This document shows, one piece after another, positions 901-14,257 of a DNA stretch of 14,257 bases. Under the pieces are notes generated by a model. That model was not told the origin of the DNA. It saw only the letters and a program-made list of their open reading frames with translations, and did not search any database. Position 1 is the first letter of the stretch; every line of letters begins with the position of its first letter. The stretch is from Myxococcota bacterium (GTDB lineage Bacteria; Myxococcota; JACRCW01), in contig JBFMGU010000268.1 of the NCBI GenBank assembly GCA_040752415.1, forward strand, positions 1 to 14,257. Direction: 5' to 3'. The translations under genes were made by a program, and so were the position numbers.

Positions 901-1248
901 TCAGGCCTTCTTGGCGGCCTTGGCCGGGCCCGCCAGGTCCAGCAGGCGCGCGCGGGACAGGCCCTGCAGCTCCTGACGGAGAGCGTCCGCGGCCTTGCCC
1001 GTGGCACCGCGCTTCTCGACGATGGCGCCCACCGCCTTCTCGGTCTTGCCGCCAAAGCGGGCCGTGAACTGATCCTCCACGCGCTTGAGCTTCAGCAGCT
1101 TCGCATTGCTGAGGGTCTTCAGGAACTTCTGGAACTGCTCCTTGGACTGACCCTCCGGGATGTCCATCGTCGACGCGAGCTGGGCCGCCAGCTTCTCCTT
1201 GGTACCGAACTCCGCCTTGACGATGGCCAACGGCGCTTGCCTGGACAT
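901..1248 (-). CDS. Small Lys-rich helical hypothetical protein (115 aa) with a two-fold internal repeat
   Basis: MSRQAPLAIVKAEFGTKEKL...AKAAKKA. ATG at 1248 is preceded by a strong RBS GGAGGAG (1253-1259, minus strand). Codon usage is typical of coding sequence. The 175-aa ORF-track start is probably too far upstream. Confidence 0.8.
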   Translation of the reverse strand: MSRQAPLAIVKAEFGTKEKLAAQLASTMDIPEGQSKEQFQKFLKTLSNAKLLKLKRVEDQFTARFGGKTEKAVGAIVEKRGATGKAADALRQELQGLSRARLLDLAGPAKAAKKA

Positions 1249-1283
1249 GGGACTCCTCCACCACGGGACAAAAAGGGGCGTGC

Positions 1284-1313
1284 TGCCTAGCCACGGACAC
1301 CCTTGCCTGTCAA
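1284..1313 (-). promoter_or_regulatory. Putative sigma70-type promoter for the 1248..901 gene
   Basis: Minus strand has a perfect TTGACA (1313-1308), an 18-bp spacer and TAGGCA (1289-1284, weak -10), about 35 nt upstream of the start codon. Confidence 0.4.
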
Positions 1314-1414
1314 CTGGCGCAGGCGGGATCCGGGCCTTCCAGGCCGCCCGGGTCGGGCCCACGTGGTTGGGGCGGGCTTGCGCGCGGCGGCGCCGGTCCC
1401 GCAGTGTGCGCGTC

Positions 1415-2212
1415 GTGCCGCACGTCACCGTGGATGGACTCCCGGTCCGCTACCGCGAAGAGCCCGGTCCCGCCGGCGCGCCCACGCTGGTCCTGCTGCA
1501 CATGGCTGGCGGCGGCAGCAGCGTCTGGGGACCGGTGGCCAGTCGGCTGGGGCGCCGGTTCCACGTGGTGGCGCCGGACTTCCCCGCGCACGGCCAGTCC
1601 GCGCCCAATCCCCACCTGGATCAGCAGCCCGGCGCCATCACCGGCGTCCACCCGCGCATCACCGCGCTGGCCCGCTGGACGCTGCAACTGATGGATGCGC
1701 TGAAGGTGGAGCGCGCAATTCTCGCCGGACACTCGTTGGGCGGCATGGTGGCGCTGAGCGTGGCGCTGCTGGCGCCGGCGCGGGTGGCGGGGCTGGGACT
1801 GGTGTGCACCAGTGGGCGCTTGCGGCTTGCGCCCGGCCTGCTGGAGGCCATCGAGGCGGACTTCGAGGGCTTTGCCCGGACCTTCACCGCCGCGGCGGTG
1901 CCGGCCAACCTGCCCACCACGGACCGCACGCGCGTGCAGCCCATCTTCCCCCAGGCCAGCAAGGCGGAGGTGCTGGCGGACTTCCGCGCCGTGGACGGGC
2001 TGGATCTGCTGCCGCAGCTGGGCGGGGTGGGCGTGCCGTGCGTCGTGGTGGCGGGGGTGCAGGATGTGCTGACGCCGCTGGCACACGCGGACGATCTGTG
2101 TCGGACGCTCAAGTCCGCGCGCCTGGTGCCGATGGAGGGGTGCGGTCACCTGGCTCCCCGGGAGGCTCCGGCGCGGGTGGCCGAAGCCTTGCTGGCCCTG
2201 GCCGACCGGTAG
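1415..2212 (+). CDS. Alpha/beta fold hydrolase (serine hydrolase)
   Basis: LVLLHMAGG oxyanion region, VVAPDFPAHGQS, nucleophile elbow GHSLGG, acid in AGVQDVLTP and His in GCGHLAP. Start placed at GTG 1415 (MPHVTVDGLPVRY), with GTG 1406 as an alternative. The 1160 start would overlap the divergent gene. Confidence 0.9.
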   Translation: MPHVTVDGLPVRYREEPGPAGAPTLVLLHMAGGGSSVWGPVASRLGRRFHVVAPDFPAHGQSAPNPHLDQQPGAITGVHPRITALARWTLQLMDALKVERAILAGHSLGGMVALSVALLAPARVAGLGLVCTSGRLRLAPGLLEAIEADFEGFARTFTAAAVPANLPTTDRTRVQPIFPQASKAEVLADFRAVDGLDLLPQLGGVGVPCVVVAGVQDVLTPLAHADDLCRTLKSARLVPMEGCGHLAPREAPARVAEALLALADR

Positions 2213-2337: not shown

Positions 2338-2669
2338 CACCGGCCGTGCTCCGGCAATTCCTTGTGCAGAACGTTGATACCGCGGCCCGCGTCATTGACG
2401 GGCAGGCCGTGGTGATCACGCCTCATGACGCCGTGCTCCACACCCTCAACGAGGTGGGCACGTTCATCTGGGCGCGCGCCGACGGGAAGCGGACCGTGCA
2501 GGAGATCCTGCAGGACGTGGTGGCGGAATTCGAGGTGCCCCTGGAGGCCGCCACCGAGGACGCGGTGTCTTTTGTGGACACGTGTGTGCGCAAGGGGATC
2601 CTGGAGCTGAGCAGCAGTCCCAGGCCGGTAGACCTGTCCATCATCCACGCGGGGGGGGCCATGCCCTGA
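2322..2669 (+). CDS. Stand-alone PqqD-family protein / RiPP recognition element (RRE)
   Basis: ARVIDGQAVVI...LHTLNEVGTFIWARADGKRTVQEILQDVVAEFEVPLEAATEDAVSFVDTCVRKGIL matches the three-strand plus three-helix PqqD pattern (LNxxGxxIW, DG.RT, EFEV, D..xF). The true start may be GTG 2346 or GTG 2364. Confidence 0.9.
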   Translation: MSLLEPPAVLRQFLVQNVDTAARVIDGQAVVITPHDAVLHTLNEVGTFIWARADGKRTVQEILQDVVAEFEVPLEAATEDAVSFVDTCVRKGILELSSSPRPVDLSIIHAGGAMP

Positions 2670-2764
2670 GGCAAGGTGGTCTGGCCGACGTCGGGGGCGG
2701 CGGTACGCTTCTGACGGGTTGGGTTGCCCCGCTGCCCCACGCGTGTCCCCTGAGGAATGCCATC

Positions 2765-5700
2765 ATGACCATGACCACCGGTTTCCTTCCGTCTCGTTCC
2801 TTTGCCCGCACGCGCGCGCGTCTGGGCACGCTGGCCCTGTCCGTGGGCCTGCTGGGCCTGGGCGCCTGCGAGGGGTGCCCGCTGGTTCCGCCCGGCACGG
2901 AGGACGCCGGCGTGGTGACGCTGCGCGGGCAGCTGTTCTTCTCCGCGCCCTCGGACAACGCCAACCTGACGCTCGCCGACGACGCGGATCCCAGCCAGCC
3001 CGGCTTCCAGGTGCAGGTGGAGGTCCGCGGCCAGGGCGTGGCCGACGGGACGGTGGTGACGTTGAAGGTGGACACGCGCCCCGGGGAGGAGCTGACCGAC
3101 CGGATCAACGGCGGCATCGTGCGGTTCCGTCCCACGCTGGCGGGCGGACCGTTCCCCGGCGGCAAGGCCAACAAGCTGGAGGTGAGCGCGCCCGACGCCG
3201 ACGGCGCGGCCATCACCGTCAAGGTCATCGAGAACACTGCGGCCTCCTGCAGCTTCCGCTCGCCCGCCAACGGCGCCAACCTCTTCACCGACGGGAATAC
3301 CGGTGAGCCGGGGTTCCAGACCGACGTCACCGTGGCGTGCGCCGGCACCACTGTGCAGGCCGAGGGGCCGGTCCGCCTGGAGGTGTTCCAGGGCCTGCAG
3401 ACCACCGGCACGCCGGTGCTGACCGTCCCGCTGGCCTTGTCCAACGGTGAGGCCACGTTCCAATCCGTGACGCTGCCGGAGGGCGACGTGACGCTGCAGG
3501 CTTCCGTGCGCAGCACCTCCGGGCAGCAGGTGGGCCACACCTCCATCCGCGTGCGCGTGGACACCGGACGCTGCGACGCGCAGATCATCTCGCCGCCGGC
3601 GTCGTCGGTGCTCACCACGCAGAACAGCACCGACCTGGATCCCAGCACCCCCGAGACACTGGACCTGAACTTCACGGTGACCAGCGTGCTGTGCCCGGGC
3701 GGCTCCGTCAGCCTGCAGGTCAACGACGCCACCGCCACGGGCAACCTGAGCGCGGGCACCGGGGTGGTGCGCGTGGCGCTGCCGCAGGGAAGCGTGCAGG
3801 TGGTGGCCACCATCGACGACGGGGACGGACCGCGCCAGCCCGGCGACAGCCCCGCGGTCAGCTACACGGTGGACACCCTGGCGCCCTGCCCCGCGCTGAC
3901 CGCTCCCGCCGCCAACGCCATCCTCACCGCCGGCGACGACGAGGAGGTGCCGCCCAACGCCGCCAACGGCGTGACCTACACGCTGCGCGGCACGGTGACC
4001 AACGCGGAGAACACCAGCCAGGTGAACGTGAACGTGCTGCGCGGCATGCAGAGCTTCACGCAGGTGGCCGTGCCGCTGAGCGGCAATGAGTTCAGCCTGC
4101 CGCTGCAGAACATGACCGCCAACCGCTACACGGTGCGGCTGAGCGCGGTGGACACCTACGGCAACGCGTGCAGCGCGCCGGACCAGTCCTTTGACGTCAA
4201 CCTCGACGCGGCGGCGGTGACGGTGGCCATTGTGAATGACACGCAGCCCGCCGACACGAACCTCATCCGCATCGAGGACGCCAGCGCCACCGACGACGGC
4301 ATGCAGGCGGTGGTGCGCGTGCGGCTGCAGAACGCCAATCCCTCCAGCGGGCAGGCTTCCGTGACGCTGGCGCTGGCGGGCGGCGCGCCCATCGAGCTGG
4401 GGCCGGTCACGCTGGCGGGCGACGGGACCGCGGAGTTCACCACCACGCTTGCCGACGGGGACTACTCGGTGGTGGGGGTGGTGTCCTTTGGGGACGGTCG
4501 CCCCGCGGTGGCCACGGTGGCGCCGCTGGACATCACCGTGGACGGCACCCCGCCCGAGCTCAGCCTGCTGCGCCCCGCCGACGGCGTGACCATCAACACC
4601 ACCAGCGTCGACGTGGAAGTGCAGGTCACGGGCACGGACCTCAACGGAAACCCGGTGCTGACCTTTGGCGCCCAGACCCTCAATCCCACCGTGAGCAACG
4701 GCGGCGTGCACGGGTGGACGGTGACGGGGCTGGATACCGCCGCGCCCAACGTCATGGTGGTGAGCGTCTCCGACCTGGCGGGCAACCGCGCGGAGATCAC
4801 GCTGACGGTGAACGTGGACACCACGCCGCCCACCGGGACCCTGTCCGGGCTCAACCCCGACGGCGAGTCGCTGACCCTCTCCACCGACATCCTGCAGCCC
4901 ACCCGCCTGGACATCAGCACCACCGAGGGTGCGCTGGCGCTGGACTACAACAACAACGCCGCCGACGGGCTGCAGTACGGCTTCGCGGTGGAGCTGAGCC
5001 TGGAGGACTGCGCCTCGCTGGGGGCCAACCCGGTGGCGGTGCTGGACCTCCCGGGCAACGACGTCGACGAGGTGGTGGCGCTCACGACGGTGGGCGCGGT
5101 GTGTCGGGGCACGGCCAACAACGGCGGCGCGGGCTACACGCTGCCCGACGGGTTGGGCGAGGCGACCCTCACGCTGGTCGACGTGGCCGGCAACGTCACG
5201 GTGATCACGGTGTACCTGGACGTGTACCGCGCGCCGGCGTTCGTGCGCATTGACTCCCCGCAGGACAACGCGCTGGTGAACGGCAACGGCCTGGTGGTGC
5301 AGGGCAGCACCAACCTGAGCGGCACGGGCACATGCACGTTGGTGGTGGATGGGACCGACGGGCCGAGCGTGGCGCTGGCCAGCTCCCTGGCCTTCCCGGG
5401 CGTCGACATCAACAACGGCGCCAGCGTGCAGCTGCTGGTGCGTTGCGCCAACGCCCAGGAGACGGTGACCAGCCTGCCAGTGACGGTGCTGGCGGATTCC
5501 CTGCCGCCGGCCAACGCGGCGCTGCGCCTCAGCAACGGCACGCCCATCCCGCCCGCGTTCAACCTGGGCTACCGCTCCGAGGGGCAGCTGGGCAGCGGTC
5601 GCTACACGCGCACCATGGCCGTGGAGGTCGACGCGGAGGGTGGTTGCTCCCGCCTGCGCGGCGCGGTGCTGACCACCACCCCGCAGAACACCGTCTACAA

Positions 5701-8700
5701 CGCGCGCGGCGACGGCACGGGCGGCACGTTCTGGCAGTACTCCAGCACGCCCACCGAGCGCTGCACCGCGTTCTTTGACGACGTGGACTTTGGGCTGGAG
5801 AACGAGCCCGGCTTCACCACCACCCTTTCGGCGACGGTGGCGGACAGCGCGGGCAACAGCGCCACGGTGCAGGCCAGCGTGCTCACCGACCAGGTGGCGC
5901 CGGAGCTGGGCCCGCGCACCTCTCCCGTCAACACCGTGCTGGGCTCGTCCGACGACGCGGTGGGCGACCTCAGCGACGGATTCCAGGTCACCTTCACCGT
6001 GCCCATCACCGCCGACGGGCGGGCCGGGACGGTCACGTTCACCTGCAGCGGCAACGACGCCGAGACCAGCTGCCCCGCACCCCAGGTGGTGGCGGCGGAC
6101 GCCACGGAGATCTCCGTCACCGTCACCGTGGCGGACGGCAGTGGCGACGCAAGCGTGACGCTGACGATGGACGTGGTGGACGCGGCTGGGAACGCTTCAA
6201 GCTCGTCGGTGGGGCTGGCCATTGACCTCAGCGCGCCCGTGGCGGGCAACCCCGCGCTCACGCTGGACGACGGGACGCCGCTGCCCACGACGCTCAACGC
6301 CACGATGCCCTCGCAGGTCAGCGGGACGGGGCGCTACCTGCGCGACCTTGGCTTGGAGCTGGACGCGGAGAACGGCGCCTGCGACACGCTGGGGACTCCG
6401 ACGCTGAACGTGAGCAACGTGCAGGGCAACACCGACTACGTGGCGGGTGCATACACGTTGGTGGGCGGCACGCGCTGTCGCGCGCTGTTCGACAACGTGG
6501 ACCTGGGCGACGAGCAGGAGGACGACCTCACCAGCACGCTCACCGTGACCCTGAGCGACGCGGCGGGCAACCGCACGCAGGTGCTGAGCGGAACCGTCGT
6601 CCTCGACGTGGTGGCGCCCCAGTTGGGGACGCCCACGCCCGCGGACGGGACCACGCTGGGTGCGTCAGGCGACTTCGACTCGAACCCGGGGAATGGAATC
6701 CAGGTGCAGCTGAGCGTGCCGCTCTTGAACGCGGATGGTCGGACGGGGGACGCGTCGCTGGCGTGCACCGGGAACGACGGCGAGACGAGCTGCCCCACGG
6801 GACAGGCGGTGGCGGGCAATGCTTCCGACGTGACGCTGCTGGCAACGGTGGCGGACGCGAGCGGCGACGCCAATGTCACGCTGACCCTCACGGTCACCGA
6901 CGGCGCGGGCAACAGCGCGCAGGTGGTGGTGGCCCTCACGGTGGACCTGACCGCGCCGGCGGCCGGCAACGCAGCGGTGGTGCTGGGCGACGGAACGGCG
7001 TTGCCGGCGGCGTTCAACGCGAGTGCGGTCTCGTCGACGGTGGGGAGCGGCCGGTTCACGCAGGACCTGGCGCTGGAGGTGGACGCGGTGAACGGCAGCT
7101 GCGACGACGTGTCCAGCGCGACGTTGACGGCGACGCCGACGCCGGGCGGAACGTCGGTGCTCTACACGGCGGGCTTCACGCTGGTGGGCGCGCGGTGTCG
7201 CGCGGTGTTCCCGGCGGTGGACCTGGGGAGCGAGGGTGACGCGGGAACGGTGAGCACGCTGGATGTCACGGTCACGGACGCGGTGGGCAACACGGCTCCC
7301 GCGGCGTCGACGAGCCTGCTGCTGGACCAGGTGGCCCCCGTGCTCGGCAGCTACACGGCGCCGCGCGCCCTGTTGCTGGGCCTCGCCGACGATGACGACG
7401 ACGTGATCGCCAACGGGTTCCAGCTCACGCTGGATGTGGCCATCACCAACCCCGACGGACGAACGGCGTCGGCGCAGCTGACCTGCACGGAGGGGGCCAA
7501 CCAGACCGCGGGCGAGGTGCAGTGCCCCGCGACGCCGACGAGCCTGACCGCGGGCGCGACCTCTGCCGTCCTCACTGGCATCACCGTCGCGGACGGCAGC
7601 GGGGATGCCAGTCCCACGGTGACCCTGGTGGTTTCCGATGCGGCCGGCAACGTCAGCAACAGCGTGGTGGTGTCCCTGACGCTGGACCTGACAGCCGCTA
7701 CGCTAACGCTCACCAACCCCACCGACCAGCGCCGGTTCAAGGCCGCCGACGACGCGCGGCCCGATCCCGGATTCCAGATGCCGGTGGTGGGCGTTGCCCC
7801 AACCACGTCCGCCAACTCCAGCCTGGAGATTGCCATCAACGGCGGTAGCTTCCAGGAGGCGTGCAATACCGGCGCGGGAACCAATTGCGCCGGTGCCGTC
7901 ACGCTCCCCGACCCGCCGGATGGAACGTACGCCGTGGTGGCTCGGATGCGAGAGCTCTCCGGCAACACCAGCGCTTCCATCAACCGTACCGTCTACGTCG
8001 ACACGCAGGCCCCGGTTGTCACCAGCATCACCGTCGTGGCCGACGTGAGCGGCAACAATGACGGGAAGGGCACGCTGGTGGATGAGAGCGTCGCGAATCA
8101 GGCTGTGGCGGGGTACCAGACGAACATCGTCGTCACGGTGACAGGAGTGGAGGACAACCAGCAGCTGACTCTCAGCACCAACGTGGCGGGCACCAATCCC
8201 CAGACCGCAGCCGTTGTGGGCGGTCAGGTGACCTTCACCGTGACGTTGTTCGATGGGGCCCACACCCTCCAGGCCGCCGTGTCCGACCTGGCTGGCAACC
8301 CGGGGTCGGGCATGCAGGCGTTCCTGGTGGACGTCACCGCGCCTACGGTGAGCATCACCCAGCCCAACCCCTCCACCACCAGCATCCTCACCTCGTCGTC
8401 CGACGCGGATGGCAACAGCGCCACGTCCGGCTACCAGTTCGGCAACGGGGCCTCGGCATTGGTGGCCAGCACGTCCGCCGCGGACGGTGACACGTGCACG
8501 CTCCGCGTCGTCAACGACGGCACGTTCACGCCGGTCGCGACGACGGCGAGCGGAGCTCAGGTCGCGTTTGGGCTCGGCACCCGGGTGCCGGAATCAGCGG
8601 CGCTGGGCGGCACCACCCAGCTGCAGGTGCAGTGCACGGACGCGAATGGGAACGTCGGCGTGTCCAGTGTCTTTGCTCCGCAGGTCGACACGCTGGCGCC

Positions 8701-11401
8701 GCAGATTTCCGCCGCGAACCTGGTGGTCCCGCTCCTGGACCCGGTCACGCCGCTCAATGAAGACGATACGGGGGCGAGCATGAGCGGCATCCAGGCGCGC
8801 ATGCGCATCACGCACGACCCGCTGGAGGGTAACCCCCTCCGCTTTGTGTCCGTGCAAGAGGGCCTCCTGGGGGCGGCGGAGGTTGCTGGCGCGCCGGTCG
8901 GCTCCACGGACATGCGCCTCACGTTCTTCTTCGAGGCGGTCCACAATGTGTCCGTCTACTCAGAGGACGCCGTTGGCAACTCGGACGTGTTCAACTTCCA
9001 GCTGGACATCCGCACGGGCACCATCAACGTGACCATCACCCCACGGGACACCAGCGGAACCGGCCTACCGGTCTACCTGGGCCTCGCGGACGATCAGGAT
9101 TCCGGGAAGGCCGGGCTGCAGCCCCTCATCTCCGTCGAGACCAGCGAGTCCGGCAGCTACACGGCCACGCTGGAGGTGGGAACCACTTCGGGACTGACCC
9201 AGGTGCAGAGCAAGAACGTCACCGGCACCACGTTCAGCTTTGACGTCAGCGCCTTCCCCGCAAACATCCTGGAGGACGGGCTGCGGGAGATCCGTGTCAC
9301 GGTGAACAACGGCATCATCGGCGGAGAAGCCACCACCTACTATTACGTGGACACCACGCGCCCGGTGGTGGCGTTCACCGCAGACGGGGTGCGCGACCTC
9401 TACAACCTGACCCACGACGAGCTGCCTTCCGCGGGATTGCAGACCACCTTGAAGGTCACGGTGTCCGACTGCGGCACCAGCGGGTACGCGGGGGAGCTCG
9501 TGGTCAGCACGTCGTTGGGCGGCGGGACGTTGGCGACGGTGTCGATCTCGTCGAACTACGACGCGACCTCGCCGTTGCTCGTGCCGGTCACGCTGGACCA
9601 CGGCAATCACACCCTGACCGTGACGTGCACTGACGTGTCCAACAACACCAACCAGCCGGCGCTGACGTACGCCACCGCAGTGGACGCCGTCGCTCCAACC
9701 AACAGCGGCCTGACCTACACCGCCATCGACCGCCGCCGCGCCAGCCTCAAACTCAACTTCACCGCCGCGGGTGACGACGGAGATCAGGGCGCCACCGCAA
9801 CCTACTCCGTGGCGATGTCCACCCAGCCCATCACCACCGACGCGCAATTCACTGCGGCCACACCGGTGGCGTTCACGCATGCTGGATTGGTGGCGCCGGG
9901 CAACCCGCAGGTCTTTGACGTGACGGACCTGGCCGTGGAGCAGCAGCTCTACTTCGCGGTGCGCGCCGAGGATGACCAGGGGAACGCATCCATCATCACC
10001 AACGCCAACGTGGTGGATCTGCGGCTGCTGACCCGCACCGTGGTGGGCAGCGACGGCGGCACGGGTCTGTTTGGCACCGCACTGAACCGCGTTGGCGGGG
10101 ACATCAACGGCGACGGCTTCGAAGACATCGTCGTGGGCGTGACGGGCAACGACAGCGGCGCGGGCGAGGTTCACGTCTATTACGGCAGCGCGGACATGGC
10201 CCTGGGCGACACCACCATCAACCCGGCCGCCATTGCCACCACCATCCTCAAGCCAGCCACCGGCAACAACACTGCGGGCTGCGGCGCGGGTGTGTTCATC
10301 CTCGGCGACCTGGATGGCGACGGCTTCGACGACGTCATGACCCGCTGCGGAACAAGCCACAACAAGGTCTACCTCTGGTACGGCGCCTCTCCCCGCATCT
10401 CAGATGGTGCAGCGCCGGTGGTCATCTCCGAGACCAGCGGCGGTGCCACCACGGCGCTGGGCTTTGGCGCGGCCGGAGTGGACTTCAACGGCGACAACAT
10501 TCCCGACCTGGCCATTGGCGAAGCGGTCCGGACGAGCAGCTCGCCGGTGCAGGGCACGGTGTGGATCCTGTACGGTACGGACTCGGGGGGCGGGGGCGCG
10601 CCCTACGACCGCCTGAGCACCGTGGACCTGGCAACCCTGACCGGGACGGCAACGCGGGTGCGCGGGCCGCTCAACGCCTACTTCGGCGCGGCGGTGACGC
10701 AGGTGCCCAGCTTCAACTCCGAGGACACCATCCCCGACCTTGTGGTGGGCTCGCCGTTCCACGACGGAGCGAACACCGACATGGGCCGGCTCTATGTCGT
10801 GCGCGGCCGCACAGGGGCGGCGGGGAGCATCATTGACGTCAGCACCGACGGCACCAACACCGAGGTTCGCGAGGTGACCGGCAGCAACGGTCTGCGTCTG
10901 GGCTACCGGGTCATGACAGGAGACTTCAACGGGGATGGCGTGGTGGATGTGGCCGCGGCGGGCGAGTCCAAGCTGGTATCCGGCACGACCTACAACGGCG
11001 GTGCGTACATCTACACCGTTGCGTCCGGCGGCGGTCTGGCGGCCAGTCCCATCACGCTGCTTCCCAGCACCGGTGTCCAGGCACTGCAGATTGCGTCGCT
11101 GCGGGACTTCAATGGCGACGGAAGCGATGACCTGGGATACGGCATCGGCGGAATTCTGTCCGGGTTCACCTACCCCGAGCAGGGCCTGGTGGTGCTCGGC
11201 TCGACGGGCCTGGCGAACCGTCTCGCCACCGACCCCAACACCCACGTGGCGGACTACGCCTTCTCGCTGGACCTGGAACCCAATGATCCCTTCCTCACGG
11301 TGGCCGGCGGCAGCGATGTCAACAATGACGGCTACCCCGACCTGATCATCGCGAACAAGGGCGGAAACGGGACGAACGGGCAGTTGCTCATCAAGTACTG
11401 A
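2765..11401 (+). CDS. Giant surface lipoprotein/adhesin (~2878 aa): lipoprotein signal, many bacterial Ig-like domains, FN3-like domain, C-terminal FG-GAP (integrin-alpha-like) beta-propeller
   Basis: RBS-like GAGGA before ATG 2765. Signal peptide RTRARLGTLALSVGLLGLGAC has a lipobox Cys at 2867-2869. The protein is Thr/Val/Gly/Asp-rich with recurring D-x-(A/x)-G-N and (V/L)D-x-x-(A/P)-P Ig-domain boundary motifs. FN3-like segment LNFTAAGDDG...YFAVRAEDDQGN at ~9683-10020. Seven FG-GAP-type repeats run from 10070 to the end. Confidence 0.92.
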   Translation: MTMTTGFLPSRSFARTRARLGTLALSVGLLGLGACEGCPLVPPGTEDAGVVTLRGQLFFSAPSDNANLTLADDADPSQPGFQVQVEVRGQGVADGTVVTLKVDTRPGEELTDRINGGIVRFRPTLAGGPFPGGKANKLEVSAPDADGAAITVKVIENTAASCSFRSPANGANLFTDGNTGEPGFQTDVTVACAGTTVQAEGPVRLEVFQGLQTTGTPVLTVPLALSNGEATFQSVTLPEGDVTLQASVRSTSGQQVGHTSIRVRVDTGRCDAQIISPPASSVLTTQNSTDLDPSTPETLDLNFTVTSVLCPGGSVSLQVNDATATGNLSAGTGVVRVALPQGSVQVVATIDDGDGPRQPGDSPAVSYTVDTLAPCPALTAPAANAILTAGDDEEVPPNAANGVTYTLRGTVTNAENTSQVNVNVLRGMQSFTQVAVPLSGNEFSLPLQNMTANRYTVRLSAVDTYGNACSAPDQSFDVNLDAAAVTVAIVNDTQPADTNLIRIEDASATDDGMQAVVRVRLQNANPSSGQASVTLALAGGAPIELGPVTLAGDGTAEFTTTLADGDYSVVGVVSFGDGRPAVATVAPLDITVDGTPPELSLLRPADGVTINTTSVDVEVQVTGTDLNGNPVLTFGAQTLNPTVSNGGVHGWTVTGLDTAAPNVMVVSVSDLAGNRAEITLTVNVDTTPPTGTLSGLNPDGESLTLSTDILQPTRLDISTTEGALALDYNNNAADGLQYGFAVELSLEDCASLGANPVAVLDLPGNDVDEVVALTTVGAVCRGTANNGGAGYTLPDGLGEATLTLVDVAGNVTVITVYLDVYRAPAFVRIDSPQDNALVNGNGLVVQGSTNLSGTGTCTLVVDGTDGPSVALASSLAFPGVDINNGASVQLLVRCANAQETVTSLPVTVLADSLPPANAALRLSNGTPIPPAFNLGYRSEGQLGSGRYTRTMAVEVDAEGGCSRLRGAVLTTTPQNTVYNARGDGTGGTFWQYSSTPTERCTAFFDDVDFGLENEPGFTTTLSATVADSAGNSATVQASVLTDQVAPELGPRTSPVNTVLGSSDDAVGDLSDGFQVTFTVPITADGRAGTVTFTCSGNDAETSCPAPQVVAADATEISVTVTVADGSGDASVTLTMDVVDAAGNASSSSVGLAIDLSAPVAGNPALTLDDGTPLPTTLNATMPSQVSGTGRYLRDLGLELDAENGACDTLGTPTLNVSNVQGNTDYVAGAYTLVGGTRCRALFDNVDLGDEQEDDLTSTLTVTLSDAAGNRTQVLSGTVVLDVVAPQLGTPTPADGTTLGASGDFDSNPGNGIQVQLSVPLLNADGRTGDASLACTGNDGETSCPTGQAVAGNASDVTLLATVADASGDANVTLTLTVTDGAGNSAQVVVALTVDLTAPAAGNAAVVLGDGTALPAAFNASAVSSTVGSGRFTQDLALEVDAVNGSCDDVSSATLTATPTPGGTSVLYTAGFTLVGARCRAVFPAVDLGSEGDAGTVSTLDVTVTDAVGNTAPAASTSLLLDQVAPVLGSYTAPRALLLGLADDDDDVIANGFQLTLDVAITNPDGRTASAQLTCTEGANQTAGEVQCPATPTSLTAGATSAVLTGITVADGSGDASPTVTLVVSDAAGNVSNSVVVSLTLDLTAATLTLTNPTDQRRFKAADDARPDPGFQMPVVGVAPTTSANSSLEIAINGGSFQEACNTGAGTNCAGAVTLPDPPDGTYAVVARMRELSGNTSASINRTVYVDTQAPVVTSITVVADVSGNNDGKGTLVDESVANQAVAGYQTNIVVTVTGVEDNQQLTLSTNVAGTNPQTAAVVGGQVTFTVTLFDGAHTLQAAVSDLAGNPGSGMQAFLVDVTAPTVSITQPNPSTTSILTSSSDADGNSATSGYQFGNGASALVASTSAADGDTCTLRVVNDGTFTPVATTASGAQVAFGLGTRVPESAALGGTTQLQVQCTDANGNVGVSSVFAPQVDTLAPQISAANLVVPLLDPVTPLNEDDTGASMSGIQARMRITHDPLEGNPLRFVSVQEGLLGAAEVAGAPVGSTDMRLTFFFEAVHNVSVYSEDAVGNSDVFNFQLDIRTGTINVTITPRDTSGTGLPVYLGLADDQDSGKAGLQPLISVETSESGSYTATLEVGTTSGLTQVQSKNVTGTTFSFDVSAFPANILEDGLREIRVTVNNGIIGGEATTYYYVDTTRPVVAFTADGVRDLYNLTHDELPSAGLQTTLKVTVSDCGTSGYAGELVVSTSLGGGTLATVSISSNYDATSPLLVPVTLDHGNHTLTVTCTDVSNNTNQPALTYATAVDAVAPTNSGLTYTAIDRRRASLKLNFTAAGDDGDQGATATYSVAMSTQPITTDAQFTAATPVAFTHAGLVAPGNPQVFDVTDLAVEQQLYFAVRAEDDQGNASIITNANVVDLRLLTRTVVGSDGGTGLFGTALNRVGGDINGDGFEDIVVGVTGNDSGAGEVHVYYGSADMALGDTTINPAAIATTILKPATGNNTAGCGAGVFILGDLDGDGFDDVMTRCGTSHNKVYLWYGASPRISDGAAPVVISETSGGATTALGFGAAGVDFNGDNIPDLAIGEAVRTSSSPVQGTVWILYGTDSGGGGAPYDRLSTVDLATLTGTATRVRGPLNAYFGAAVTQVPSFNSEDTIPDLVVGSPFHDGANTDMGRLYVVRGRTGAAGSIIDVSTDGTNTEVREVTGSNGLRLGYRVMTGDFNGDGVVDVAAAGESKLVSGTTYNGGAYIYTVASGGGLAASPITLLPSTGVQALQIASLRDFNGDGSDDLGYGIGGILSGFTYPEQGLVVLGSTGLANRLATDPNTHVADYAFSLDLEPNDPFLTVAGGSDVNNDGYPDLIIANKGGNGTNGQLLIKY
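5501..7693 (+). repeat. Three diverged tandem intragenic repeats of about 240-247 aa, each apparently two Ig-like domains
   Basis: Units 5501-6232, 6233-6952 and 6953-7693 share motifs such as N.A..L..GT..P...N, G(S/T)GR(Y/F), EVDA/ELDA..G.C, RC.A.F..VD(F/L)G, D(Q/V)VAP.LG, DGR, VAD(G/A)SGDA and D.AGN. Confidence 0.85.
10070..11398 (+). repeat. Seven FG-GAP / Ca-binding DxNGDG repeats (predicted 7-bladed beta-propeller)
   Basis: GDINGDGFEDIVVG, GDLDGDGFDDVMTR, VDFNGDNIPDLAIG, PSFNSEDTIPDLVVG (degenerate), GDFNGDGVVDVAAA, RDFNGDGSDDLGYG, SDVNNDGYPDLIIA. Confidence 0.88.
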
Positions 11402-11437
11402 GTGGTTCTCTAATACGTGGCAGGCAGGAGGCAAGAC

Positions 11438-11620
11438 ATGGGCAACACGCAGACAAAGGCCGCTGGGGACGAGAAGTCGCCCAAGCGGACCTATGCGCCC
11501 CCGTCGGTGGAGAGTGCGGAAGCGTTTGAGCGTGCCGCGCTGGGCTGCACCCAGGGCGACACCACGAACCCAGACAAGTCACCCGAGGACTGCGGCGGAA
11601 TCGGAGTTCCCGCCAGCTGA
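11438..11620 (+). CDS. Putative RiPP precursor peptide (60 aa)
   Basis: Perfect RBS AGGAGG (11426-11431) before ATG 11438. Sequence MGNTQTKAAGDEKSPKRTYAPPSVESAEAFERAALGCTQGDTTNPDKSPEDCGGIGVPAS carries a KRxYxPPxV RRE-binding-type leader motif and two Cys in the C-terminal part. It lies directly upstream of the kinase-like and rSAM/SPASM genes. Confidence 0.82.
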   Translation: MGNTQTKAAGDEKSPKRTYAPPSVESAEAFERAALGCTQGDTTNPDKSPEDCGGIGVPAS

Positions 11621-11626
11621 GCGCGC

Positions 11627-12421
11627 ATGACAGCAGTCCACTTCCTGGAGATAGCGGATCTGGGGGTCCGGTTGGACCTGCTGGACGACGAGGAGCCACC
11701 GGGTCCACGTTTTGAGCCGTTTGCTGCCCTGTCGCGGACCCGGGTGGACGTGGTCCTGAGGCAGCGGCTCTCGCCTCCCGACGAGCGAAGCTCCTGGCAG
11801 TACCACCGGGAGAAGGTTCTTCACCTTTGGCAGTGCGGTGATGGGGAGTTCGAATTCCAGCGTGTCCGGGATGTCTCCATCAACCCGCCCTACAGCCACA
11901 CGGACCTGGCGCTGGACACCGGGTTGCGCGTGATCCTGGCGCGCTTCCTGGCCACGCGCGGAGGCCTCCTGCTCCATGCCAGCGGTTGGCGACGGGACCG
12001 GACCGCCGCGGTATTCTTCGGGATGCACGGCGCGGGCAAGTCCACGACGGTTCGAAGCGCCGCCACGGGTGAATACCTATGCGACGACGGCATCATCATC
12101 CGGGCGTCGACCGGAGGATGGCGCGCCTACGGAACCCCGTTCCGGGGCACGGACGGCCGACCGGGCTCACCCGGCGGCGGCGCGTTGCACGGATTGTATG
12201 CGCTCCGAAAGCAGGCCGGCCCCCCGGTGATCCGCAGGCTTGAGCAACTGTCCGCCCTCAAGCAACTGATGCGTTGCGTGATGCTCCACGACGAAACCAC
12301 GGTGGAACGCGAGGGCAGCCTGGACACCGCCACGCGTCTGGTGCGCGATGGTTGGGTCCGCGAGCTGGCGCTGGGCCTGGGCACCAATCCGTGGGACGCG
12401 CTCGCCGACTGGGCGAACTGA
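11627..12421 (+). CDS. HPr-kinase/PEPCK-like P-loop protein (RiPP-associated kinase-like)
   Basis: GGLLLHASG (His motif at ~11972), Walker A GMHGAGKST (12020-12046), YLCDD acidic pair, WRAYGTPF. Starts 6 bp after the peptide stop. Confidence 0.82.
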   Translation: MTAVHFLEIADLGVRLDLLDDEEPPGPRFEPFAALSRTRVDVVLRQRLSPPDERSSWQYHREKVLHLWQCGDGEFEFQRVRDVSINPPYSHTDLALDTGLRVILARFLATRGGLLLHASGWRRDRTAAVFFGMHGAGKSTTVRSAATGEYLCDDGIIIRASTGGWRAYGTPFRGTDGRPGSPGGGALHGLYALRKQAGPPVIRRLEQLSALKQLMRCVMLHDETTVEREGSLDTATRLVRDGWVRELALGLGTNPWDALADWAN

Positions 12422-12431
12422 AGGGGCGGCC

Positions 12432-13547
12432 GTGGCCACAACCAGCAAAGCACCCCGACCCCGCCGCGCGATGCTCCATGTCACGCACCGCTGTGACCTG
12501 GCATGCCAGCACTGCTTCCAGACGGAGGAAACCCACCCGCACGAGCAAATGAGCCGGGAACAGATTGCGCACCTCCTCGACGAGCTGGCAGCCGCGGGTG
12601 TGCTCTTCCTGACCCTGACGGGCGGTGAGCCGTTCCTGCGTCGCGACCTGCTGGACATTGTGGCCGACGCACGGGCCCGGCGCTTTGCGGTGATCATCAA
12701 GACGGCGGGACACCACATCACCGCGGAGAAGGCGCAGCGGCTGAAACAACTGGGCGTGCACGAGGTGCAAATCAGCCTCTACAGCCATGACCCCGCGGTG
12801 TCGGATTCCTTCACGCAACGCAGAGGTTCGTGGCAACGCACCGTCAACGGCCTCCGCCTCCTTCGCCAGGCGGGCGTACGCACCAACGTGCGCGCTGCGC
12901 TGACGAGCTTCAACCACGACCACGTGCGGGAGTTGAAGGCCTTGGCGGAGAGCCTGGGGGCCGAGATGCAGTTTGGCGCCGGCGTGGACATCCGCACCAA
13001 CGGCGACCGCTCCGGCTTGCGTTTCAACGTCACGGCGGAGCAACGCGCGCGCGCCGCGGAGGAGATGGGAGCAACGCCTGAGAACGTCATGAATAACGCC
13101 GAGGCGATCTGCGCTGGCGACGGATTCTCGATGAGCGACCGGCATCTGTGCTCCGCCGCGCGTGACCTGGTCTCCATCAGCGCTACTGGCGAAGTGCATC
13201 CGTGCATGCTGCATCCTCGCTCGGGCGGAAACGCGCTCAGCCAGGGGTTCCGCAAGGTCTGGGAGGAGAGCTCGCTGCTGAACGATGTCCGCCGCATCAC
13301 CTACGGCGAGATGGCGCGGACGGGTTGCGCAGGGTGCGGGTACCAGAGCTCATGCAAGCCATGCATGGCACTGGCCGCGAGCGAGAACGGCGACAGCCGC
13401 TCGTGCAACACCTCCAGCCATCTGAACGCCCAGGCAACCCTGCTGCTGGCCCGCGCGCGACTACCCACCCCTCCCGGCGGGTGGCCAGAGCCGGCACCGC
13501 CGCCCCACCTGCGCAATGGGCGCGGTCTGCTTCGCGTCTTGTCGTGA
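12432..13547 (+). CDS. Radical SAM enzyme with SPASM domain (peptide maturase type)
   Basis: CDLACQHC (12492-12515), LTGGEPFLRRD and VQISLYS motifs. SPASM Cys pattern CSAARDLVSISATGEVHPC...CAGCGYQSSCKPC...C (13149-13406). GTG 12432 follows AAGGGG, 10 bp after the kinase stop. Confidence 0.93.
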   Translation: MATTSKAPRPRRAMLHVTHRCDLACQHCFQTEETHPHEQMSREQIAHLLDELAAAGVLFLTLTGGEPFLRRDLLDIVADARARRFAVIIKTAGHHITAEKAQRLKQLGVHEVQISLYSHDPAVSDSFTQRRGSWQRTVNGLRLLRQAGVRTNVRAALTSFNHDHVRELKALAESLGAEMQFGAGVDIRTNGDRSGLRFNVTAEQRARAAEEMGATPENVMNNAEAICAGDGFSMSDRHLCSAARDLVSISATGEVHPCMLHPRSGGNALSQGFRKVWEESSLLNDVRRITYGEMARTGCAGCGYQSSCKPCMALAASENGDSRSCNTSSHLNAQATLLLARARLPTPPGGWPEPAPPPHLRNGRGLLRVLS

Positions 13548-13597: not shown

Positions 13598-14257
13598 TTA
13601 CTTCGTGGGCTCCGCGCTGGCTTCCACGGCGCGGTTGTCTTCCACCTCCGCGCTGATGGGCCCGCCAATGCCCGCGCCCAACGCCGCCAGCGGCACCGCC
13701 ATGCCCACCACCAGCGCACTGGTGATGGCCAGGGCCTGCGGCGTGTTGGAGGTGATGTCCCCGCCCGCAATCTGGTTGCGGAAGGAGCGCAGCGGCTCCG
13801 GCACGTAGGTCACCACCAGGAACGACGTCACCAGGCCCAGCACGGTGCCCACGCCGCCAAAGAAGAGCGCGCCAATCACCGCGCCCAGCAGCGACGGCTG
13901 CGGGCCCATCAGCGGCCGCACGATGCGCTGCACCACCGCCGAGGCCAACACCGCCAACGAGAGCACCACCGCTACCACCGCGCCGGTGATGAGCATGTTC
14001 AGCGGCACCCCCAGCGGCTGGATGGACTGGATGTCCTGCGGAAGCACCATGGGCAACAGCGCCAGCGGCGTGGCCACGCCCAGCCCCAGCACCAGGATCA
14101 CCGCGGCACCGGCCACGCCCGTCACCGCGTCCATCAGCAACCGGTTCCCCAGCGGCGCCTTCTCCACTCGGGCCACCGGCGCCGGCGTGGGAGCGGGCGG
14201 AACCGGCTCAGCCGCGGCGGCGGGCGCGGGAGCGGGGGCGGCCGCGGCGGGCGCCTC
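13598..14257 (-). CDS. Partial (5' end outside the window) multi-pass membrane protein with Pro/Ala-rich N-terminal linker
   Basis: The frame is open to the right window edge (EAPAAAAPAPAP...VARVEKAPLG). It has about four hydrophobic segments and a TAA stop at 13598-13600, convergent with the rSAM gene. Confidence 0.75.
   Translation of the reverse strand, partial: EAPAAAAPAPAPAAAAEPVPPAPTPAPVARVEKAPLGNRLLMDAVTGVAGAAVILVLGLGVATPLALLPMVLPQDIQSIQPLGVPLNMLITGAVVAVVLSLAVLASAVVQRIVRPLMGPQPSLLGAVIGALFFGGVGTVLGLVTSFLVVTYVPEPLRSFRNQIAGGDITSNTPQALAITSALVVGMAVPLAALGAGIGGPISAEVEDNRAVEASAEPTK

Follow-up and report, generated by a model that had tools for sequence, protein, structure and literature searches.

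What does an 8.6-kb gene for an adhesin-like lipoprotein do inside a peptide biosynthesis cluster? The question is raised by contig JBFMGU010000268.1 of a Myxococcota bacterium (assembly GCA_040752415.1), which was analysed over its entire length of 14,257 nt, called the window below, and which belongs to an 11-Mb genome of about 70% G+C in 520 contigs. It encodes the parts of a cluster for a peptide that is made on ribosomes and modified after translation (RiPP), namely a PqqD-type RiPP recognition element (RRE), a short precursor, a ScmC-family HPr-kinase-like protein and a radical S-adenosylmethionine (SAM) enzyme with a SPASM domain. Between the RRE gene and the precursor gene stands a single large gene, the product of which is hereafter called the giant. 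The usual reading of a RiPP cluster is that it makes bioactive peptides for secretion. As read from sequence, the arrangement (hydrolase)–PqqD–giant–YxxP precursor–ScmC–radical SAM/SPASM is a conserved myxobacterial operon, and we consider it rather likely that the giant is a fixed, co-inherited member of it and that the peptide matured by the RRE, ScmC and the radical SAM enzyme acts together with the exported giant.

The evidence comes mainly from a survey of related loci. Of 401 sampled genomes of the phylum, 201 contained a match to a ScmC profile (E ≤ 1e-8), and 65 loci, the window and 64 matches, were read over 20 kb each or as much as the contig gave. The choice comprised four of the stronger matches of the first search, the 20 best further profile matches and 40 taken down the ranking; in this last set each genus is mostly represented once or twice, some contig-start matches lacking upstream DNA were passed over (e.g., G006:C58 and G294:C588), and so were most additional genomes from the two largest genera. 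PqqD, ScmC and radical SAM genes were located by profiles on stop-to-stop frames; long frames were searched for Pfam domains and for matches to a propeller profile.

A gene of the same FG-GAP propeller subfamily lies directly 5' of the precursor and ScmC genes in 31 of the 65 loci, spread by database labels over 11 families and 29 genera; this is the neighbourhood survey for large Ig/FG-GAP proteins that an earlier, sequence-only reading of the window had proposed. Twenty-nine of the 31 are long open reading frames (ORFs), the largest of 3068 aa, and three of these are truncated where a contig ends; the other two are short or broken (L035) and frame-split (L072). The same slot is taken by a protein of 728 to about 1490 aa ending in a PQQ_2/BamB-like propeller in 10 loci and by a C25 peptidase in two (L065 and L081); three loci have a long ORF with no Pfam match (L039, L057 and L046). 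Eleven loci are compact, with the order PqqD–radical SAM–precursor–ScmC, and eight have neither PqqD nor a big gene, one of the eight being cut by a contig end. The layout had been called unusual, which is true of RiPPs in general but not within this cassette family, where it is the norm. As for close relatives with the RRE beside the precursor and no large gene, the big-gene lineages show the opposite arrangement, although compact sisters do exist (11/65).

In L035 (G096:C4, 7347–8725, minus strand), a short, propeller-only and apparently frame-split gene is found between PqqD and the precursor, and it may be a decaying or minimal big gene. A C25+S8 double peptidase follows ScmC in L084, and the big gene adjoining L060 encodes an NHL-repeat propeller protein with DUF4215. 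Since L065, L081, L084 and L060 adjoin C25, C25+S8 or NHL-repeat big genes, the theme of a cassette with one large exported protein is, judged from gene content, wider than FG-GAP. The enzymes vary as well: a Myxococcaceae-like group has PqqD–propeller protein–peptide–ScmC followed by miaA, and other cassettes without a radical SAM gene carry an added GNAT protein, in which Pfam, read up to E 1, recognised the GNAT part and no S26 peptidase. Because many big-gene cassettes are of this kind, the constant core predicted from the loci is RRE, exported big protein, peptide and ScmC.

The genome of the window holds a second cassette, L001 (G000:C64:11500-25515), of the PQQ-like kind, with the order PQQ-like-propeller protein, PqqD, second large propeller protein, lipoprotein of about 150 aa, precursor (YxxP, two Cys), ScmC and radical SAM. 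The only other genome of the same family, represented by L046, carries this second kind of cassette; the small lipoprotein and the gene order of L001 recur there, and PqqD lies 3' of the radical SAM gene, at the operon end. A PqqD-anchored survey added 17 new loci to 12 on contigs already surveyed (29 in all). In 10 of the 17 a long same-strand ORF lies immediately 3' of PqqD, most extending past the available DNA; among them the propeller profile recognises L114 and L117, and Pfam assigns FG-GAP to L105. Two of the new loci are compact, both from metagenome-assembled genomes without a myxobacterial label, three end too early to judge and two have no big gene. The closest relative reached, L108, reads hydrolase (40% identity)–PqqD (47%)–giant before its contig ends, and its giant is 36.8% identical to that of the window over residues 6–764. 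Across cassettes, the giant is collinear with the other big genes at 24–37% identity, and the PqqD proteins share 39–48% identity with that of the window. The closest ScmC homologue, P0002 (46% identity, 97% coverage), is the sole close one among 51 matches, and two metagenome scans found no relative.

The association of propeller and cassette was also assessed quantitatively, and the adjacency proves to be far beyond chance. Within about 1.15 Mb of the 65 loci, propeller-profile matches fall into two groups: those scoring over 140 bits, every one of which is located between PqqD and ScmC, and the remainder, with at most 108 bits. In the genome of the window the giant is the sole full-length match (254 bits), and about 30 other FG-GAP ORFs give partial matches of at most 106 bits. 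Each of five cassette genomes examined (5/5) has exactly one full-length match, the cassette's own; these propellers were themselves in the profile, and the informative point is that no second copy occurs. Genomes without ScmC gave a full-length match in 0/5. Mapped on the ScmC tree, big-gene type requires 11 changes against a shuffled mean of 33, and 0 of 200 shuffles were as low; since single genomes hold two cassette types (e.g., G200, G076, G051 and G086), this pattern is not the species phylogeny alone. Pairwise divergences are correlated between propeller and ScmC (r 0.69), propeller and PqqD (r 0.75) and ScmC and PqqD (r 0.73), with 0 of 2000 permutations as high in each Mantel test; species relatedness contributes to the single-copy, tree and divergence figures alike. 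The proposal that the peptide machinery and the giant are functionally coupled is well supported by these comparisons, because gene order is conserved in the survey of loci.

In the window itself, six genes occupy the forward strand, coding for the hydrolase, RRE, giant, precursor, ScmC and radical SAM/SPASM enzyme (Table 1). The sequence-only reading had placed the RRE gene 95 bp before the giant gene and the precursor 36 bp after it, on one strand and with no obvious terminator. Both distances are exact, the five genes from RRE to radical SAM all lie on the plus strand, and the terminator scan returned zero sites in the two gaps, against seven in the whole window (5.0 ± 2.8 expected). The frame of the giant is free of stops from 2582 to 11401, and its ATG at 2765 (MTMTTGF...), with GAGG 9–10 nt upstream, gives a gene of 8637 nt. 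An AGGAGG lies 7 nt before the precursor ATG, and 6 nt separate the precursor stop codon (11618–11620) from the ScmC start. A motif scan found zero sigma-70-like promoters in the window, and the strongest terminator-like hairpin, 65 nt past the radical SAM stop, is the probable operon end. With short gaps, a strong ribosome-binding site and no terminators, co-transcription of the RRE, giant and precursor genes is suggested. The absence of a transposase or insertion scars was likewise confirmed: none of nine window proteins scanned against family libraries matched a transposase or other mobile-element family, the repeat scan found neither direct nor inverted repeats bracketing the giant gene nor a tandem array, and G+C is even along the window (0.64–0.76), with no break in composition at the borders of the giant gene.

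Table 1. Coordinates of the features of the window.
Feature	Position	Strand	Details
Alpha/beta-hydrolase, S33-like	1160–2212	+	Pfam Abhydrolase_1 E 9.6e-23; Hydrolase_4 (S33) E 6.9e-9
Stand-alone PqqD-type RRE, 115 aa	2322–2669	+	Pfam PqqD E 4.1e-15, 56.3 bits (cut-off 23.4)
Spacer between RRE and giant genes	2670–2764		95 nt; terminator- and promoter-like sites: none by scan
Giant lipoprotein gene	2765–11401	+	2878 aa; predicted signal peptide, lipobox, Ig-like stalk and C-terminal propeller
About six predicted Ig-like beta-sandwich domains	2870–4924	+	The 685 residues next to the lipobox; alignment shows a repeating P.DG..L..DD.DP...G[FIL]Q module
Predicted seven-bladed FG-GAP integrin-alpha-like beta-propeller	10025–11398	+	Giant residues 2421–2878 (last 458)
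Spacer between giant and precursor genes	11402–11437		36 nt; contains the AGGAGG ribosome-binding site of the precursor; terminator-like sites: none by scan
Precursor peptide, 60 aa	11438–11620	+	Leader Y19-A-P-P22-S-V24, F30-E31-R32; core Cys37, Cys52; C-terminal Ser60
ScmC-family HPr-kinase-like P-loop protein, 264 aa	11627–12421	+	PF27840 ScmC; P-loop GMHGAGKS at residue 132
Radical SAM/SPASM enzyme	12348–13547	+	Pfam Radical_SAM E 7.4e-25; SPASM E 1.3e-5
Strongest terminator-like hairpin of the window	13612–13634	+	8 pairs, 7 of them G-C; 65 nt past the radical SAM stop

The giant is predicted to be a bacterial lipoprotein, with a signal peptide and a lipobox (...LLGLGAC, L-G-A-C) ending in Cys35 and a second Cys at 38. 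An export signal, either a lipobox with CxC or a Sec signal, is present on all big proteins of the cassettes (assigned partly by eye). Pfam matches Big_13 and FG-GAP domains in the giant. An AlphaFold2 (AF2) model of its N-terminal 685 aa is all-beta with a mean predicted local distance difference test score (pLDDT) of 78.7, and Foldseek retrieves titin, complement MG and immunoglobulin (Ig)-receptor chains at low template-modelling (TM) scores. At the other end, the propeller matches FG-GAP with 87.6 bits (E 4.3e-25) and FG-GAP_3 with 46.4 bits and contains four exact calcium-type DxNxDGxxD loops and, by eye, further degenerate copies. Its AF2 model (pLDDT 75.6, predicted TM score 0.83) has as top PDB matches the propellers of integrins alpha5, alpha6, alphaIIb and alphaV, with E about 1e-12 and TM 0.57–0.65. 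In these models the giant is an Ig-like stalk tipped by an integrin-alpha-like propeller, in agreement with the earlier description of an adhesin-like protein with an integrin-like tip. The likeness to the integrin alpha head consists in the seven-bladed propeller with DxNxDGxxD loops on an Ig-like stalk. In contrast to that head, identity is only about 15%, the window protein is a predicted bacterial lipoprotein known from sequence and model, and the operon has no beta subunit and no betaI/vWA partner. The modelled parts are the N-terminal 685 aa and the 458-aa propeller, and about 1700 middle residues lie outside both. Searches of Pfam, NCBIfam and PDB sequences found no catalytic or peptidase family in the giant, and the [YW]xxPx[IVL] motif is absent throughout its 2878 residues.

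Two further observations concern this protein. Positions 5748–7900 comprise three tandem modules of about 720 nt (240 aa), starting near 5748, 6462 and 7182, each with a conserved Cys pair and a D-x-A-G-N motif. Most FG-GAP-type relatives have a second Cys directly after the lipobox Cys, as C-D-C, C-H-C, C-S-C or C-N-C (L002, L036, L038, L040, L048, L049, L056 and L070 are among those with such a double-Cys N-terminus); the window version of this pair (2867–2878) is C-E-G-C.

On the peptide side, the nearest solved chains to the RRE belong to the PqqD family and to lasso and linear polyphosphorylated peptide (LPP) chaperones (9x8z_B, 9x90_B and TbiB1). Residues Y19, P22, E28, F30, E31, R32, L35 and C37 of the precursor are invariant in the alignment. 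In ScmC, G113, H117, G132, G137, K138, T140 and D153 are conserved, and the match to solved HprK is weak (PDB E 0.02). The radical SAM frame is open from 12348, with ATG 12471 as its likely start; it carries the CxxxCxxC motif as CDLACQHC (ORF residues 49–56) and SPASM cysteines at 268, 286, 327, 330, 336 and 339, and its nearest solved chains are SkfB and PqqE. The combination of a radical SAM CxxxCxxC motif, a SPASM domain and core cysteines is that of sactipeptide- and ranthipeptide-type loci, so a thioether is predicted from the genes only. A PqqD-fold RRE beside the precursor, together with a [Y/W]xxPx[L/V/I] leader and a variable core, likewise predicts RRE-dependent modification.

Similar peptides accompany the big genes elsewhere. 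In 35 of the 45 big-gene loci a small ORF with a basic residue followed by [Y/F/W]xxPx[I/V/L/M/A] starts between −29 and +71 nt from the big-gene stop; of the remainder, five yielded no peptide, three have it at 496–1059 nt and in two the wrong frame was picked. The peptides of compact loci carry the YxxP-type leader motif too. Leader and core classes follow cassette lineage. Precursors of the PQQ-like class combine YxxPxIxWExxF with a Cys pair, one large FG-GAP class is Cys-free with a basic C-terminal [FY]GPxR[ED]xPRR, and another FG-GAP class has short Cys-pair cores. The class of the window (the window, L052, L055, L061, L090 and L094) spans five different families and always occurs with an FG-GAP giant and a radical SAM gene. 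All six members share, in the subfamily alignment, YxxP, [FY]ER, LxC and a second Cys 13–32 residues on, and five of them end in Ser and one in Thr. In the Cys-free class (L036, L038, L040, L041, L043, L048, L049, L002 and L035), the neighbouring radical SAM-like gene scores weakly, with no SPASM match in the one case scanned (L002). Among the roles put forward in the sequence-only reading, those of propeller ligand, contact signal and assembly factor are hypothetical. The suggestion that the peptide might be an identity tag for the propeller is unlikely, as core motifs such as [FY]GPxR[ED]xPRR and WEQPF...C..PGESEC are common to several genera and not private to strains.

We hypothesize that, in the cytoplasm, the RRE would dock on the YAPPSV leader and present the peptide to the two enzymes; ScmC would then phosphorylate Ser or Thr, most probably the C-terminal Ser60, and the radical SAM/SPASM enzyme would probably cross-link the peptide through Cys37 and Cys52. 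Outside the cytoplasm, the matured peptide would act together with the exported giant, a step that gene order alone suggests. Because the giant gene appears as a fixed operon member across myxobacteria, the arrangement suggests a role for the small modified peptide in the service of the giant rather than as an antibiotic. More tentatively, the C-terminal propeller might have the matured peptide as its dedicated ligand or as a small subunit. This idea follows the logic of PQQ (pyrroloquinoline quinone), a peptide-derived product made with a radical SAM enzyme that ends up in exported propeller proteins, and that of QhpC, whose partner subunit QhpB is a beta-propeller. According to PMC7876137, a radical SAM enzyme cross-links QhpC, which is exported and becomes part of a periplasmic enzyme.

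Comparison with known systems delimits these analogies. The qhp operon resembles the window in uniting a small leader peptide with Cys and Asp/Glu, a radical SAM/SPASM enzyme (QhpD) and exported partner proteins (PMC7876137). The haem subunit, QhpA/QhpB, the QhpE protease, the QhpF exporter and the QhpG flavoprotein/monooxygenase are, in contrast, unmatched among the window proteins, a Trp-quinone motif is not evident and the partner is a 2878-aa lipoprotein rather than an enzyme subunit; by analogy, the resemblance is one of logic and not of membership. With the PQQ system the window shares a PqqD-type RRE and a radical SAM/SPASM enzyme, and ten sister cassettes have PQQ_2/BamB-like propellers; unlike that system, it lacks PqqB, PqqC and the Glu/Tyr PqqA motif, it scores under the PQQ equivalog cut-offs, and its propeller is of FG-GAP type. 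The same enzyme families make up the SynChlorMet cassette (PF27840/TIGR04249 ScmC, TIGR04248 ScmD, TIGR04250 ScmE and TIGR04251 ScmF): the best NCBIfam match of the window PqqD is ScmD, and its ScmC falls in the broader PF27840. All scores stay below the respective cut-offs (TIGR04249, 20.9 bits, E 1.8e-4, against 125; TIGR04248, 42.2 against 100; TIGR04251 and TIGR04250, 82.6 and 77.5 against 400). The window further differs in having one radical SAM enzyme instead of the ScmE and ScmF pair, and a giant lipoprotein encoded between PqqD and precursor does not figure in the SynChlorMet definition. A literature search on SynChlorMet and ScmC found no relevant paper.

The closest parallel to the first part of the proposed pathway is offered by LPP and the paeninodin-type phosphorylated lasso peptides. 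In Popov et al. 2026 (PMC13381572), a discrete RRE binds the YxxPxV leader, LppK, an HprK-like enzyme, attaches several phosphates to a single Ser, and leader removal in the LPP system requires a dedicated exported-type peptidase. The window shares with these systems, as described there, a discrete lasso-type RRE, a YxxPx[V/I/L] leader followed by F-E-x and an HprK-like enzyme, and the precursors of its subfamily end in Ser or Thr. It differs in that an SpI/S26 peptidase, nucleotidyl (NTP) transferase, MsbA-like exporter, lasso cyclase and B2 protease are unmatched among the nine window proteins, in the added radical SAM/SPASM enzyme and giant lipoprotein gene, in phylum and in a ScmC that is only distantly HprK-like. 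A RiPP-type cassette around a giant FG-GAP or PQQ-like protein was not found described in the literature searched, outside which supplements fell, and the terms kinase, propeller, FG-GAP and HprK do not occur in PMC12710340.

How the giant and the peptide belong together can be explained in several ways. That an adhesin gene was inserted once, or came to lie in the cluster by chance, has a negligible probability: FG-GAP genes are common, as the roughly 30 other such ORFs of the genome illustrate, and nothing else was found in favour of this idea, whereas every survey result contradicts it, the order being conserved in 31/65 loci and the borders of the gene being free of repeats, mobile-element genes and composition breaks. 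Very improbable, too, is the giant as the actual substrate of RRE, ScmC and radical SAM. Protein-sized RiPP-like substrates exist, and the RRE gene is directly 5' of the giant gene in nearly all loci; the docking motif, however, is missing from the giant and present on the small peptide in almost every locus, and a protein with a Sec/lipoprotein signal would exit the cytoplasm unfolded. Co-regulation without contact would mean that the peptide and the surface protein are merely needed together, for example in surface contact, predation or development. Gene order cannot tell shared regulation from physical interplay, and the compact cassettes work without the big gene, but we regard this explanation as quite unlikely, as the big gene is flanked by the RRE gene on one side and the gene for the RRE's substrate on the other rather than lying at an operon edge, and an order kept in 11 or more families, along with a single-copy propeller subfamily specific to the cassette, would be unusually persistent. 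A handling role outside the cytoplasm, in which the giant captures, processes (by leader removal) or displays the exported peptide and stands in for the C25/S8 peptidases, is unlikely but deserves somewhat more attention. A C25 peptidase fills the same slot in L065 and L081, L084 has its C25+S8 protein 3' of ScmC, the window has no other leader peptidase save possibly the upstream S33-like hydrolase, and LPP leader removal takes a dedicated peptidase (PMC13381572). No peptidase family was matched in the giant by the Pfam, NCBIfam and PDB sequence searches, though, and both modelled parts are Ig-like sandwiches and a propeller; the intervening ~1700 residues could hide a domain.

Several findings also weigh against the favoured account, in which the matured peptide acts with the exported giant. 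The window has no recognisable exporter or leader peptidase, which makes the route of the peptide to an exported protein problematic, and the 11 compact loci of 65 indicate that the peptide chemistry can exist without the giant. A slot filled by unrelated FG-GAP, PQQ-like and C25 proteins would fit "some exported partner" better than one binding mode, and the chemistry varies, since many big-gene cassettes lack a radical SAM gene. Independent events are fewer than the counts imply, because the genomes are related. Core and propeller net charge show a Spearman correlation of −0.34 (p 0.07, n = 28, uncorrected for relatedness), and gene starts were chosen by eye on stop-to-stop frames.

If the peptide does act with the giant, the consequences reach beyond this locus. 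Genome-mining tools would split the cluster at the 8.6-kb gene, and a conserved giant between recognition protein and substrate points to modified peptides tied to a cell-surface machine. Gliding, predation and kin recognition in myxobacteria depend on contact between surfaces, so a peptide-dependent integrin-like surface protein would be a new player open to testing. The more specific idea, that the RiPP machinery produces a dedicated peptide with covalent modifications for loading into the integrin-like propeller, and not a diffusible antibiotic, is put forward as a speculative possibility; if true, it would describe a bacterial "integrin with its own custom-made ligand or subunit", and the PQQ-like-propeller and C25 cassettes would be variations on a peptide with an exported client protein. 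The uncharacterised ScmC family gains a defined substrate set, and cultured strains may exist, since the cassette is present in genera with complete genomes (e.g., the one-contig G200).

The remaining genes of the window lie towards its ends. Orthologues of the S33-like hydrolase (40–41% identity) are found directly 5' of PqqD in L100 and L108, in the order hydrolase–PqqD–giant, and the hydrolase may thus belong to the operon; it is a candidate for the missing leader peptidase. Its true start probably lies downstream of 1160, since the Pfam domain starts at ORF residue 108. The two outermost genes did not recur in the other loci, and no link of either to the cassette was found. One, convergent on the minus strand at 13598–14257, just beyond the operon end, encodes a multi-pass membrane protein that matched no family; the other, at the opposite contig end (3–785, minus strand), encodes a response-regulator-receiver protein whose long N-terminal part is rich in Pro and Ala.

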